From positions 1 to 36,062 of the forward strand of contig SYEN01000232.1 in NCBI GenBank assembly GCA_005800795.1: 36,062 nucleotides of DNA, read 5' to 3'. Below the pieces are notes generated by a model, which was given only the letters and a program-made list of their open reading frames with translations, did not search any database and was not told the DNA's origin. Origin of the DNA: Burkholderiales bacterium (lineage in GTDB: Bacteria > Pseudomonadota > Gammaproteobacteria > Burkholderiales > SG8-41). Shown here piece by piece: positions 1,203-6,688 of this stretch (position 1 is the first letter of the stretch; each line of letters opens with the position of its first letter). Both the position numbers and the translations under genes were made by a program.

Positions 1203-2327
1203 ATGGAAGGCGTTGCAAATCAGCTTGCGGAAACCATCCGCGAGGCAAGCACAAATAAAACACCACTTCGAATAGTTGGCGGCGGCACCAAAGATTTCTA
1301 CGGCAATCCAACCACCGGTGAATTGTTGTGCACCAGCTCCTACCGCGGCATCGTCGATTACGAACCCACGGAGCTGGTGATTACCGCGCGCGCTGGTACG
1401 CCGCTGGCCGAAATTGAATCAACCTTGAAGGACAAGGGACAGATGCTGGCGTTTGAGCCACCGCATTTTTCTAAAGGCTTTCCCTCACCCCTAACCCCTC
1501 TCCCGGCGGGAGAGGGGAACAGTACGCTCGGCGGAACCATCGCCGCCGGACTGTCAGGCCCGCGCCGCCCCTACGCGGGCGCGGTGCGCGATCTGGTGCT
1601 GGGCGTTCGTATTCTCGACGGCACCGGCGCTGATTTGCGCTTTGGCGGACAAGTGATGAAGAACGTCGCGGGCTTTGATGTGTCGCGATTGATGGCAGGT
1701 GCAATGGGCACACTCGGCGTGATTCTCGAAGTGTCGCTGAAAACCCTGCCGCTGCCGCCTGCTGAGATCACGCTGCATCAACAGTGTAACGAAGCTGACG
1801 CCCTGCGCCTGATGAACGAGTGGGCCGGTCAGCCGTTGCCGGTTTCCGCAACGTGCTGGACGCATGGCGATTTGCGCATACGCCTGTCAGGTGCCGCCAG
1901 TGCCGTGGAAGCCGCGCGCAAGAAGCTAGGCGGCACTGTGGTGGATGCACCTCTGGCCAGCACACTCTGGAAAGGTGTGCGCGATCACACGGATGCGTAT
2001 TTCACCCGCAGCGGTGCGCTGTGGCGACTGTCGGTGAAATCGTCCGCGCCGGTAATCGTGCTGCCCGGCGTGCAGCGCCTGGAGTGGAGCGGCGCGCTGC
2101 GCTGGCTGCAAACTGATGCCAGTGCTGTGGCCGTGCGCGACGCCGCACAGAAGGCAGGCGGACACGCGACACTGTTTCGTTTGGATGACCACAGCGATGC
2201 CCTACGCAAAAATGGTGGCGTGTTTCATCCGCTATCGCCCGCGCTCGCCGCGATTCATCGCAAACTGAAACAGACCTTCGATCCGGTAGGCATACTGAAT
2301 CCTGGCCGCCTTTACCTCGATATCTAA
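1203..2327 (+). CDS. glcE: Glycolate oxidase FAD-binding subunit GlcE
   Basis: The track ORF starts at TTG 1179, inside the REP element. ATG 1203 gives MEGVANQLAETIREASTNKTPLRIVGGG, which lines up with the E. coli GlcE N-terminus as I recall it. Motifs: GQVMKNVAGFDVSRLM, GGHATLFR, LNPGRLY. Confidence 0.85.
   Translation: MEGVANQLAETIREASTNKTPLRIVGGGTKDFYGNPTTGELLCTSSYRGIVDYEPTELVITARAGTPLAEIESTLKDKGQMLAFEPPHFSKGFPSPLTPLPAGEGNSTLGGTIAAGLSGPRRPYAGAVRDLVLGVRILDGTGADLRFGGQVMKNVAGFDVSRLMAGAMGTLGVILEVSLKTLPLPPAEITLHQQCNEADALRLMNEWAGQPLPVSATCWTHGDLRIRLSGAASAVEAARKKLGGTVVDAPLASTLWKGVRDHTDAYFTRSGALWRLSVKSSAPVIVLPGVQRLEWSGALRWLQTDASAVAVRDAAQKAGGHATLFRLDDHSDALRKNGGVFHPLSPALAAIHRKLKQTFDPVGILNPGRLYLDI
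1472..1522. repeat. Palindromic REP-type element embedded in frame in glcE
   Basis: tccctcacccctaacccctctcccggcgggagaggggaac contains the perfect palindrome cccctctcccg-g-cgggagagggg (1495-1517). It is translated as GFPSPLTPLPAGEGN, and on the opposite strand as SPAGRGVRGEG. Confidence 0.7.
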
Positions 2328-3668: not shown

Positions 3669-5321
3669 GTGATTACAGAAACGAAACAGCAGAAACCGCG
3701 CACCATGCGACAACTCGCCAAGAACTACGACTTCATTATCGTCGGTGCCGGCAGCGCGGGCTGTGTGCTGGCCAACCGGCTGACCGAATCAGGACAGCAC
3801 CGTGTGTTGTTGCTCGAGGCCGGGCCAGACAGCCGTCATCCGTGGCTGCGCATTCCGTTGGGTTACGGCAAGCTCTTCACCGACCGGCGTTTCAACTGGT
3901 GCTACCAGACTGAGCCGCAACCACATTGCGCGGGCCGCAACATCGTTGCGCCGCGCGGGCGCGTGCTCGGCGGTTCGAGTTCGATCAACGGCCTCATTTA
4001 CATTCGTGGCCAGAAGCAGGATTTCGATCACTGGCGGCAATTGGGCAACACCGGCTGGGGCTTTGATGACGTATTGCCCTACTTTCGCAAAGCGGAAGAC
4101 AACGAGCGCGGCGCCGACGCATGGCATGGCGCGGGCGGCCCGCTCGGTGTGTCCGACTTGCGCGACCGCCACCCGCTGGCCGAGGCGTGGGTCGATGCCG
4201 CCGTGGAGTCCGGCTATCCGCGTAACGCGGATTTCAACGGTGCTACGCAGGAAGGCGCGGGCCTTTACCAGACGACAATGCGGCGCGGCGTGCGCAGTTC
4301 CACCGCCGCGGCCTACCTGGCACCGGTGCGCAACCTCGCCAATCTGCATGTGGTATCGGAAGCGCTGGCCACCCGCATTCTGTTCGAAGGTCGGCATGCG
4401 ACAGGCGTCGAATACACCGTTGGCGGCGTGAAACACGTCGCGCACGCCAACGTCGAGGTCATCGTAGCGGCCGGGGCATTTAACTCGCCGCAGCTTTTGC
4501 AACTTTCGGGGCTGGGTCCGGCAGATCTCATGAGGGCGCACGGCATCCCCGTGATCGCGGACTTGCCCGGCGTCGGCGCGGAACTCAGCGATCACTACTT
4601 CACCCGCATCATCCTGCGCGCGAAAGAGCCGCTGTCGCTCAACGATGCGGTGCGTCAATGGCATCGTGGCGCCGCGGCGGCGCTGCGCTACACCTTCCAG
4701 CGCCGCGGTTATTTCGCCATCCCCGCGATTTCGGCCGGCTGCTTTCTGCGCGCGCACCCCACCGCCGCCACACCCGACATTCAGGCGTCCCTCGGCCTCT
4801 ACTCAGTGCAGAACATCGGCGAGACCTTGCATCAGTTTTCCGGCGTCACTGCGGTGTGCTGCCTGCTACGTCCAGAGAGCAAAGGCAACGTGCGTATCCA
4901 GTCTGCCGATCCACAGCAGGCACCGGCGATCAACCCGAACTACCTGGCCTCCGAGAAAGACTGTGACACGATGATTCACGGCCTGCGCGCCGTGCGGCGC
5001 ATCCTGCAGGCACCTGCCATCAAACAGCACATCGCTGAGGAATTTGAGCCTGGGCCAGCTTGTGCCAGTGATGACGAACTGCTCGAGTATGCGCGTCAAC
5101 GCGGATCAACGGTCTACCACCCGGTCAGCACCTGCCGCATGGGGCAAGATGACACAGCGGTCGTCGACGCGCGTTTGCGCGTGCGCGGCTTTGCGGGCCT
5201 GCGCGTGATCGATGCATCCGTGATGCCGTCGCTGGTATCGGGCAATACCAACGCGGCGACTATCATGATTGCGGAAAAAGGTGCCCAAATGGTTCTTGAA
5301 GACGCGAAGGCACGAGCGTAG
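3669..5321 (+). CDS. GMC-family FAD oxidoreductase (choline/alcohol dehydrogenase-like)
   Basis: Motifs: [18 protein letters not shown] dinucleotide fold, [17 protein letters not shown] signature, and HPVSTCRMG in the C-terminal active-site region. The start is GTG 3669; ATG 3705 is an alternative and neither has a strong SD. Confidence 0.85.
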
Positions 5322-5346
5322 TCAGCCCACGTTGTATGTTTGCACA

Positions 5347-5449
5347 GTACCTGGTACCGAACTTTAGGTGTACCGCCTAAGCCATTGAGGTACTAGTACT
5401 TTTCAGTACAGCGGCGTACTATCCCCCGAACTTCGGTACGGGGAGGTAC
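5347..5449. promoter_or_regulatory. Array of nine GTAC palindromes filling the methyltransferase leader
   Basis: GTAC starts at 5347, 5354, 5370, 5390, 5396, 5406, 5416, 5436 and 5446. The sites at 5396/5406/5416/5436/5446 share one 10-bp phase. The array includes GGTACC (5353-5358) and the 10-bp palindrome GTACTAGTAC (5390-5399). The last site sits between SD GGAGG (5442-5446) and ATG 5453. Confidence 0.6.
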
Positions 5450-5452
5450 ACG

Positions 5453-6688
5453 ATGCTCGGCTTTGAATCGGCACAGGCAACCGGTAGTCTGCGGGTTACC
5501 GGCACATCCATACTGACTAGGCGCGCGCGCGCGCGCGAGGTCGCCACTAAGGACATTCCCGTCTATCAGGGCGAGTTGTGGACGGCATTACAGCGGCAGG
5601 CCAGCAGCATCCACGAGATTTCCTACCGCGCGTGTTACAAGCCGCAACTGCCCGCGTATTTCATCGAGCGGCTTACCGAACCCGGCGACATGGTTTACGA
5701 CCCATTCAGCGGGCGCGGCACCACGGCTGTTGAGGCCGCGCTGCACGGTCGCTGTGTCATCGCCAACGACGTCAATCCGTTGTCGGCGATGCTCACGCAG
5801 CCGCGACTGGAATTGCCCTCGATTTTGCAAATCGAAACGCGGCTTGACACGTTGCGCTTCAAGGTAAAGCAACAACGCGATATCGATCTGTCGATGTTCT
5901 ACCACCGCGATACCGAACGCGAACTGCTGGCACTGCGCCGTTACCTTACCCTGCGGCGCGCGGACTACACCGAAGACGCCACAGACCGCTGGATACGCAT
6001 GGTGGCCACCAACCGGCTGACCGGACATTCTCCGGGATTCTTCTCCGTCTACACCCTGCCACCGAATCAGGCGGCCTCGCCCGAAAACCAGATAAAAATC
6101 AACGAGCGGCTGAAGCAAAAGCCCGGATATCGCGACGTACGCGAGCTGATCCTGAAAAAATCCCTGCAACTGCAAAGCAAACTCACCCCGCAACAGCGCG
6201 AAAAACTGAAAGCCGCCGCCGACAGTGCCACCTTCATGAACGACAGCGCCGCCAGCACGCTCGGCATTCCCACCGCAGCGGTCAAACTCACCGTGACCTC
6301 GCCGCCGTTTCTGGACGTGGTGCAATACGCCAAGGACAACTGGCTGCGCTGCTGGTTTAACGAACTCGATGCCGCCGATATCGCTGCGCGCATCACCATG
6401 AGCCGCACCGTATCGCATTGGTCCACCGCGATGCTCGACGTATTCCGCGAGCTGTATCGTGTGACCGCACCCAATGGCTGGGTGGCATTTGAAGTCGGCG
6501 AAGTGCGCGGCGGCAAAATCAAACTCGACGAGGTCGTCGCCCCCATCGGCATCGCAGCGGGATTCGCCTGTATGGCGGTGGCGATCAACACACAGAGGTT
6601 CACCAAAACCGCGAATATCTGGGGCGTTTCGAACAACAGCAAGGGTACTAACTCGAACCGGATTGTGCTGTTTCGCAAACCCGTGTAA
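5453..6688 (+). CDS. Solitary N4/N6-type DNA methyltransferase (motif I before motif IV)
   Basis: SD GGAGG lies 6 nt before the ATG. The AdoMet-binding motif DPFSGRGTT is at residues 83-91 (followed by AVEAALHGRCVIANDVNP). The catalytic motif TSPPF is at residues 282-286. No restriction-enzyme-like ORF is adjacent. Confidence 0.8.
   Translation: MLGFESAQATGSLRVTGTSILTRRARAREVATKDIPVYQGELWTALQRQASSIHEISYRACYKPQLPAYFIERLTEPGDMVYDPFSGRGTTAVEAALHGRCVIANDVNPLSAMLTQPRLELPSILQIETRLDTLRFKVKQQRDIDLSMFYHRDTERELLALRRYLTLRRADYTEDATDRWIRMVATNRLTGHSPGFFSVYTLPPNQAASPENQIKINERLKQKPGYRDVRELILKKSLQLQSKLTPQQREKLKAAADSATFMNDSAASTLGIPTAAVKLTVTSPPFLDVVQYAKDNWLRCWFNELDAADIAARITMSRTVSHWSTAMLDVFRELYRVTAPNGWVAFEVGEVRGGKIKLDEVVAPIGIAAGFACMAVAINTQRFTKTANIWGVSNNSKGTNSNRIVLFRKPV
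5521..5537. repeat. (GC)8 dinucleotide tract in the 5' part of the methyltransferase ORF
   Basis: gcgcgcgcgcgcgcgcg encodes RRARARE (codons 23-29) and lies upstream of the conserved methyltransferase core. Confidence 0.9.

Follow-up and report, generated by a model that had tools for sequence, protein, structure and literature searches.

A conserved GTAC pair within a promoter-like unit upstream of a solitary Burkholderiales methyltransferase gene suggests possible control by self-methylation

The analyzed window, i.e., positions 1–36,062 of contig SYEN01000232.1 (assembly GCA_005800795.1) of a Burkholderiales bacterium, carries a DNA methyltransferase gene preceded by a short leader studded with the palindrome GTAC. 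Two genes frame this leader:

Positions 3669–5321: GMC oxidoreductase gene, directly upstream of the leader.
Positions 5453–6688, plus strand: methyltransferase gene, 411 amino acids (aa), matching PF01555 and PADLOC MTase_II.

A preliminary description of this DNA had counted nine GTAC copies in a 131-bp spacer, noticed that five of them shared a 10-bp phase, and proposed that GTAC, or a site containing it, is the target of the adjacent methyltransferase and the array its methylation-sensing operator. The spacer, reaching from the GMC oxidoreductase stop codon (5319–5321) to the methyltransferase ATG (5453), and all nine GTAC starts (5347, 5354, 5370, 5390, 5396, 5406, 5416, 5436, and 5446) were confirmed. 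So were the quoted sub-motifs GGTACC (5353–5358), AGTACT (5395–5400), the 10-bp palindrome GTACTAGTAC (5390–5399), and TACTAT (5417–5422), and also the GTAC copy placed between the Shine-Dalgarno (SD) sequence GGGGAGG (5440–5446) and the ATG. The GTAC at 5390 and the GTAC of the predicted -35 hexamer (see below) together form GTACTAGTAC.

Outside the cluster, the densest 103-bp stretch of the window contained three GTAC copies versus nine in 5347–5449. The window total amounted to 84 GTAC in comparison to 64.5 +/- 6.4 in dinucleotide shuffles. The Poisson probability of at least nine copies was 1.7e-12 per 103-bp stretch and about 6e-8 across all window positions, and among all 256 tetramers this was the most extreme cluster in the window. 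The 8-mer CCGAACTT was also found to recur as described, except that its second copy begins at 5426 instead of 5427 and the copies are 69 and not 70 bp apart; its two copies are within chance, with 21 of 100 shuffles giving at least two.

Orthologues of the methyltransferase at 62–94% protein identity were detected in more than 500 species-level genomes, and the protein database contains thousands of relatives. Unless stated otherwise, conservation was counted in the 80 best-matching of these orthologous loci, all of them from uncultured Burkholderiales or Betaproteobacteria. The GTAC density was 20 per kb in their leaders versus 1.9 per kb in the flanks. A GTAC pair at 19–21 bp, mostly 20 bp, was present in 75 out of 75 loci with a readable leader; outside these stand five loci in which the gene abuts glcF without intergenic DNA and one on an over-short contig. 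Exactly 20 bp was the commonest spacing, and all 112 GTAC-N16-GTAC pairs were situated in the leaders, none in the other 511 kb. The consensus unit, cTTGTACTTTT-N9-gGCGTACnnT, is asymmetric. Among the 66 proximal units of the sequence logo, conservation was 98–100% for TTG, 92–98% for the T-tract TTTT, and 95% for GGC; a T placed three bases past the second GTAC (-7 T) occurred in 66 out of 66, and the mid-spacer was variable. The second GTAC lay at a fixed 36–41 nt from the ATG across the loci. Most leaders contain three to six GTAC, so nine copies are near the top of the range, and the dense nine-site version is confined to the closest relatives of the window. The array was thus upheld as a selected cis-acting element, with GTAC enriched again in the leaders of orthologues sharing as little as 62% protein identity. 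Altogether, the clustering of GTAC is genuine, passes conservation as a test of function, and is private to the methyltransferase gene.

The unit reads as a sigma-70-type promoter with a -35 TTGTAC, a 17-bp spacer, and a -10 TACnnT. The leader of the window may be divided as follows:

Positions 5334–5357, plus strand: decayed distal unit with GTAT at 5334–5337 (GTAC in orthologues), an inner GTAC at 5347 and a GTAC at 5354, then CCGAACTT.
Positions 5370–5393, plus strand: extra GTAC pair, 20 bp apart, with copies at 5370 and 5390.
Positions 5394–5399, plus strand: predicted -35 hexamer TAGTAC, including GTAC 5396–5399 (TTGTAC in all orthologues).
Positions 5400–5416, plus strand: 17-bp spacer with the T-tract (5400–5403), an optional GTAC (5406–5409), GGC (5413–5415), and, at 5416, the first base (G) of the second GTAC.
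Positions 5417–5422, plus strand: predicted -10 hexamer TACTAT, overlapping GTAC 5416–5419 (consensus TACnnT).
Positions 5429–5430, plus strand: predicted transcription start, 7–8 nt past the -10 (consensus G-C-A at unit positions 32–34).

The TACTAT suggested earlier as a candidate -10 falls on the best-conserved part of the unit. Judged from the alignment, what the unit keeps best corresponds to the three most conserved positions in either sigma-70 hexamer, placed at the optimal spacing. The predicted spacer is 17 bp long, and 16 or 18 bp in the variants with the 19- or 21-bp GTAC spacing. The consensus G-C-A, 6–8 nt past the -10, fits a start with a pyrimidine at -1 and a purine at +1. The promoter reading rests on the conservation pattern and not on match strength, since the consensus scanner calls no site; it is from this pattern that we infer promoter activity.

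Other sigma factors did not match as well and were rejected. A sigma-54 promoter, compared by eye with the logo, gave a partial fit to GG-N10-GC, but the GC is just 45–61% conserved, and the sigma-32 (CTTGAAA/CCCCAT) and extracytoplasmic function (GAACTT/CGT) types, also compared by eye, have the wrong -10 or the wrong spacing. Reading the T-tract as the tail of a glcF terminator was rejected as a general explanation, being true for 22 of the 73 distal-most units (counted one per locus). In these 22 units, a GC-rich terminator-like hairpin abuts CTTGTACTTTT. In L022, L031, L060, L062, L074, and L077, such a hairpin (e.g., GCCCCUUCCAAGGGGGC) ends 1–3 nt before TTGTACTTTT; it looks like the intrinsic terminator of glcF, with a U-tract overlapping the -35 and the T-tract of the methyltransferase unit. 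The window was the sole locus with TAGTAC in place of TTGTAC among 17 aligned close relatives and all loci inspected. The change hits a base conserved in 98–100% and creates the palindrome GTACTAGTAC; this TAGTAC may be a promoter-down variant.

The conservation extends to hexamer bases for which the sigma-70 consensus gives no reason. The bases completing GTAC, i.e., TAC for ACA in the -35 hexamer and, in the -10 region, G at -13 and C at -10, depart from the consensus and were invariant in 75 out of 75 loci. They stay fixed while the rest of the leader is barely alignable and the spacer scrambled. The decayed distal unit of the window aligns with CTTGTACTTCCATACAGTACCTGGTAC of L002–L013, a GTAC-N16-GTAC located 62 bp ahead of the proximal unit. 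The distal unit of this clade has lost the T-tract and the -7 T (its -10-like hexamer lacks the latter) and has kept three GTAC, the first of which reads GTAT (5334) in the window. Extra GTAC copies turn up repeatedly at defined positions: 6 bp ahead of the -35 GTAC (GTACTTGTAC; in many orthologues, distant ones included), 10 bp after it (in a subset of loci), and 19–20 bp past the -10 GTAC. The GTAC at 5370 is common only to the window and L001. After masking of the paired sites, the leaders still contained 6.3 GTAC per kb; the flanks had 1.8 per kb, and the leader composition alone would predict 3.8 per kb, so the excess of extra copies is real but modest. From these alignments, GTAC itself seems to be selected beyond the needs of a promoter.

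The phasing of the sites did not survive in the same way. Five of the nine sites in the window do share one phase modulo 10 (chance about 0.9%), but this is not kept as general phasing in the orthologues, in which the distances outside the 20-bp pair were not centered on 0 modulo 10. The idea of a 10-bp-phased operator array finds no support apart from this pair. The conserved geometry is one 20-bp pair, which matches the spacing of the -35 and -10 hexamers (spacers of 16–18 bp).

The unit was exclusive to this one gene. An exact search of metagenome contigs returned 100 matches in 76 contigs, 79 of them lying 42–157 bp upstream of an orthologue and eight cut by contig ends. The other 13 were mostly chance occurrences in low-GC or coding DNA, and they also included a leader cut by the contig end (L088) and two remnants (L082 and L155). 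A profile search of the unit over 1.08 Mb revealed no significant copy away from the gene. No linked regulator gene was consistently found beside the methyltransferase loci, and the leader stays with the methyltransferase where the GMC gene has been inserted upstream. Since the unit fronts no other gene, the methyltransferase would be its most economical reader.

In L082 (1–260), the leader with GTACTTGTAC, the unit, the hairpin described below, the ATG, and the first few codons are followed by unrelated open reading frames (ORFs), namely an aminotransferase-like tail and then a LigD-like ligase, in place of the methyltransferase body; this is a remnant of gene replacement. In L155 (about 1300–1445, minus strand), an IS630-like transposase ORF (MRRTRHHKPLLLTEDERRTLEQWARR...) begins about 25 bp past the promoter unit, which points to an insertion that separated the promoter from the methyltransferase.

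The second conserved element of the leader is an inverted repeat covering the SD sequence:

Positions 5416–5428, plus strand: 5' arm of the hairpin, GTACT (5416–5420) plus CCCCG (5424–5428, anti-SD), overlapping the -10 and the discriminator.
Positions 5439–5449, plus strand: 3' arm of the hairpin, SD sequence GGGGAGG (5440–5446) and the last GTAC (5446–5449).

The 5' arm is complementary to CGGGG (5439–5443) and GGTAC (5445–5449), and the GTAC at 5436–5439 is mostly in the loop. The predicted fold of the window hairpin has an energy of -16.8 kcal/mol (z = -1.9), and the SD sequence was paired in 57 of the 74 minimum-energy folds of orthologous loci. The arm sequences vary among the loci yet remain complementary. 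Cognate arms pair better than non-cognate ones by about 3 kcal/mol, a difference matched in 0 of 5000 permutations, which is supportive and no strict probability as the loci are related. The promoter-plus-anti-SD module occurs in tandem, in one to four copies per locus. Because the 5' arm precedes the predicted start, the methyltransferase's own mRNA would lack it. Read-through from upstream is realistic because glcF is placed directly upstream of the methyltransferase, on the same strand, in 54 of the 80 loci. Searches of Rfam with the leader (E <= 10) and with the whole window (gathering score) found nothing.

By its sequence, the gene product is a full-length Type II amino-methyltransferase. 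The PADLOC profile MTase_II (PDLC03325) aligned over aa 32–409 with profile positions 46–423 of 426 (E = 2.4e-147), and PF01555 matched the motif I region (E = 1.4e-13, 51.7 bits vs. the cut-off of 26.7). Motif I, DPFSGRGTT (aa 83–91), was invariant in 41 homologues. Motif IV, TSPPF (aa 282–286), was invariant too and aligns with SPPF of M.PvuII and SPPY of TTHA0409. The order I ... IV is permuted in comparison to the beta-class enzymes. A helical insert of approximately aa 110–270 separates the two motifs, two invariant loops (aa 192–207 and 384–398) are modelled at low confidence, and the first 35 or so residues are variable. The best sequence matches in the PDB were N4-cytosine and N6-adenine beta-class enzymes, aligned in the surroundings of motif I only. 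We take TSPPF, the PROSITE N4 signature, to suggest N4-methylcytosine (m4C) as the product; the automatic UniRef name of one relative is adenine-specific. No helix-turn-helix (HTH) family match was found in the methyltransferase, no small neighbor gene is conserved, and the unit is not palindromic, which sets the locus apart from the HTH-methyltransferase and C-protein operator systems.

The orphan status claimed for the enzyme stood: the adjacent genes encode the GMC oxidoreductase and a PrpD/MmgE protein, and the window contains no nuclease. The GC content of the gene equals that of its surroundings, no downstream partner gene is conserved across the loci, and no homologue was found in the phage collection. 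It is a solitary, vertically inherited chromosomal gene. The GMC gene separates glcF from the methyltransferase only in the window and in its closest relative, L001. Within the poorly conserved N-terminal coding region (RARARA), the window has a (GC)8 run (5521–5536, plus strand), its longest dinucleotide repeat; in most orthologues, the run is at most 10 nt. It is a local expansion, which could slip by +/-2 nt and break the frame. In L163 and L164 (1–2360), a 46%-identity relative stands beside a 5-methylcytosine methyltransferase (PF00145), an NgoMIV-type endonuclease, and an HTH_3 gene, a context that looks like a defence island, unlike the metabolic setting in the window. The locus is also carried by metagenome-assembled genomes labelled 'Bordetella parapertussis' or 'Streptomycetaceae' (L005, L008, L010, L011, L025, L026, L031, and others), and these labels look wrong.

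The discovered features raised a hypothesis of self-methylation feedback, in which the enzyme modifies its own promoter and so sets its own level. We give it a probability of about 0.5. The core of the array would be the methyltransferase gene's own sigma-70-type promoter with a GTAC inside each hexamer, and GTAC would be the site modified by this solitary enzyme. The enzyme would write on both hexamers and on the surrounding extra GTAC and, while bound, would also occupy them. Full methylation would presumably lower transcription, whereas unmethylated or hemimethylated DNA, present right after replication or at low enzyme levels, would raise it. The expected outcome is a negative feedback holding the enzyme level steady, which may also tie its synthesis to replication. 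The hairpin would add a second layer by pairing the stretch that follows the -10 with the SD sequence and insulating the gene from read-through. Only transcripts coming from upstream (from glcF, the GMC gene, or the distal promoter copies) would form it and be poorly translated.

Several results weigh against this explanation. The consensus promoter and terminator scan of 5100–5700 called no site. Its thresholds exclude a -35 with three of six matches, and TTGTAC agrees with the consensus at three of the six positions and TAGTAC of the window at two. The conserved C before TTG, the T-tract, and GGC go beyond the contacts of sigma-70. As far as the hairpin is concerned, RNAalifold run on a plain alignment of 67 5' regions gave no common structure, because the arm register shifts between the loci; the comparison of cognate and non-cognate arms took its place. 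The tandem distal promoter copies are hard to square with a hairpin that would silence their transcripts. The predicted structure of the enzyme (predicted local distance difference test score, pLDDT, of 76), searched with Foldseek against the PDB, hit generic class-I folds (NNMT, Trm11) with a template-modelling score of about 0.3, and such matches to a model say nothing on specificity.

The remaining points against it concern relatives living without the unit. Five orthologues at 65–70% identity (L038, L056, L058, L075, and L076) have neither the leader nor the GTAC unit; the gene abuts or overlaps the glcF stop codon and is presumably co-transcribed with glcDEF. The circuit would be dispensable, because these five abut glcF without any leader. 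Relatives at 46–55% identity (Roseomonas, Sphingopyxis, and others) have no GTAC in the 380 bp upstream and keep the likely DNA-contact loops. Upstream of the distant chromosomal relatives L160–L163, there was neither GTAC nor another repeated palindrome, and the plasmid relative that was scanned, L157, has no GTAC upstream. All three plasmid-borne relatives are in unrelated mobile-element contexts. Either the array arose as a novelty within this Burkholderiales clade, or the contact loops do not set the specificity.

A bolder version of self-methylation feedback would be a replication-coupled epigenetic timer, with hexamers made of the enzyme's own 4-bp target, often in tandem and shielded by the hairpin; in that case the enzyme, so far uncharacterised, would be the equivalent of CcrM or Dam in Betaproteobacteria and act as a regulator across the genome. 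We put it forward tentatively and consider it rather doubtful.

The array could instead be the operator of another protein reading the GTAC pairs, either a dedicated transcription factor or a SeqA-like binder of hemimethylated sites. The C-TTG...TTTT and GGC flanks, which exceed the needs of sigma-70 or of a 4-bp methylation site, would be accounted for in this way, and the two GTAC, two helical turns apart, lie on one face of the helix. CTTGTA resembles the operator half-sites of the GntR family, but a GntR/GlcC operator was rejected, the unit being non-palindromic and tracking the methyltransferase rather than the glc operon. The unit fronts one gene only, no conserved regulator gene is linked to it, and it is asymmetric and, where glcF and the methyltransferase have come apart, stays with the latter, all of which makes such a reader unlikely.

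An ordinary conserved promoter, in which the GTAC of the hexamers is inherited by descent and meaningless and the enzyme methylates an unrelated sequence, would explain why the conserved geometry is exactly promoter-like and why distant family members lack upstream GTAC. The modest enrichment of extra GTAC after masking, 1.7-fold over the leader composition, would also be compatible with it. Mere descent agrees poorly with non-consensus, GTAC-completing bases that are invariant in 75 loci with diverged surroundings, and with a distal unit that keeps the GTAC pair after losing promoter features. Extra GTAC copies recur at +10, at -6, and near the SD sequence, and the window cluster has P of about 1e-12. 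We regard this explanation as improbable.

It is also quite improbable that the element works at the RNA level, i.e., that the leader is transcribed from upstream and its self-complementary GUAC copies form alternative hairpins controlling translation or mRNA stability without any DNA methylation. The GUAC copies do pair together in the predicted folds (z = -2.3 for the whole leader), a helix of the window clade pairs the GTAC at 5416 with that at 5446, and the SD-sequestering hairpin is supported across the loci. However, the two GTAC of the unit are complementary over 4 bp only, and nothing at the RNA level accounts for the conserved TTG, the 17-bp spacing, or the -7 T. There is no promoter-like conservation further upstream, and neither an Rfam match nor a consensus structure was obtained. 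A heritable ON/OFF epigenetic switch (phase variation, as in pap or agn43) with a binding protein and the enzyme competing for GTAC, also considered in the preliminary description, is very unlikely: several target-like sites are clustered in the promoter and the (GC)8 coding run could slip, but no candidate competitor protein or binding motif over the sites was seen, a self-repressing enzyme would give negative feedback and not bistability, and (GC)8 is not conserved.

If self-methylation feedback operates here, it would constitute a compact circuit in which a methyltransferase senses the methylation of the cell via sites in both halves of its promoter, and its range would cover more than 500 species-level genomes of environmental Burkholderiales. 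It would provide a GTAC target and a control logic for a large unstudied family of solitary methyltransferases, and possibly a cell-cycle or homeostatic role of DNA methylation in Betaproteobacteria beyond the enzyme recognizing GTWWAC. A literature search found neither a GTAC methyltransferase of Burkholderiales nor this methyltransferase family. The 27-bp unit is a signature marking the gene start in metagenomes. Long reads underlie the assemblies of several source genomes, including MFD05942.bin.2.252 and MFD04850.bin.2.27 (L022, L043) and ME-04may21-LR-25 (L060), which makes the prediction concerning GTAC checkable in existing data.

The closest precedents are the CfrBI and LlaDII systems, in which methylation of the enzyme's own site in the promoter of the M gene sets its expression (PMC3874152, refs 174 and 175; bioRxiv 10.64898/2025.12.04.692298). 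In a similar manner, the presumed methyltransferase site would here lie inside the enzyme's own predicted promoter. CfrBI and LlaDII are plasmid-borne restriction-modification (R-M) pairs, and in CfrBI one site is shared by the divergent M and R promoters. In contrast, the gene studied here is solitary and chromosomal, with one presumed site per predicted hexamer, extra sites, often tandem promoter copies, and no nuclease to balance.

The ccrM gene of Caulobacter is said (Stephens et al. 1995) to have GANTC sites in its own promoter or leader and to be under cell-cycle control, its transcription responding to the methylation state that follows replication. The window gene resembles it as a conserved orphan amino-methyltransferase with presumed target sites in its own promoter region. 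CcrM is a beta-class enzyme (PF01555) with another motif order and depends on the activator CtrA, whereas the window protein aligns in the motif I region only and no activator site is evident.

In IS10, the promoter pIN reportedly has a Dam site in the -10, and read-through transcripts are subject to fold-back inhibition (work attributed to Roberts et al. 1985 and to Davis, Simons and Kleckner 1985). Both features have counterparts here: a putative methylation site lies in the predicted -10, and an inverted repeat pairs an upstream stretch with the ribosome-binding site. The native start of IS10 falls within the 5' arm or past it, and the start predicted here would be placed likewise, leaving only transcripts from outside to be silenced. 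In IS10, the methylase is the host Dam, the gene encodes a transposase, and there is no feedback loop, whereas here the regulated gene would be that of the methylase.

Among the Burkholderiaceae, the orphan enzyme M.BceJIV methylates GTWWAC, whose occurrences are enriched in regions preceding genes and coincide with -35 boxes, and its dimer can hold two sites at once (PMC5390034; PMC11380664). The two enzymes are alike in being orphans conserved across a Burkholderiales lineage and, given the presumed target of the window enzyme, in a short palindrome of the GT..AC type. The motif of M.BceJIV is GTWWAC rather than GTAC, its own promoter is not known to carry such an array, and orthology was rejected: M.BceJIV (283 aa, beta class) belongs to a different protein family and differs in length and motif order, and only aa 56–117, the motif I region, match 8URK/9C3U (E = 3e-4).

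GTAC is a common methylation target: M.RsaI of R. blasticus 28/5 (CP020470, locus 04320) makes GTA(m4)C, and M.CviQI, M.PabI, and M.HpyAXII make N6-methyladenine at GTAC. The m4C product of M.RsaI fits the TSPPF motif of the window protein, a likeness by description that serves as a lead only. All four belong to R-M systems, unlike the window gene. Methyltransferases of the SsoII, EcoRII, and MspI type repress their own promoters via an N-terminal HTH (PMC3874152). They bind a separate operator with this domain, for which the window protein has no match.

The preliminary description knew of no such array in front of a methyltransferase gene. As this kind of circuit is already documented for CfrBI, LlaDII, and ccrM, the arrangement is less unprecedented than was claimed. 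With its proposed logic known from CfrBI, LlaDII, ccrM, and IS10, what would be new is the enzyme family and an unusually clean and very widely conserved form of the design.

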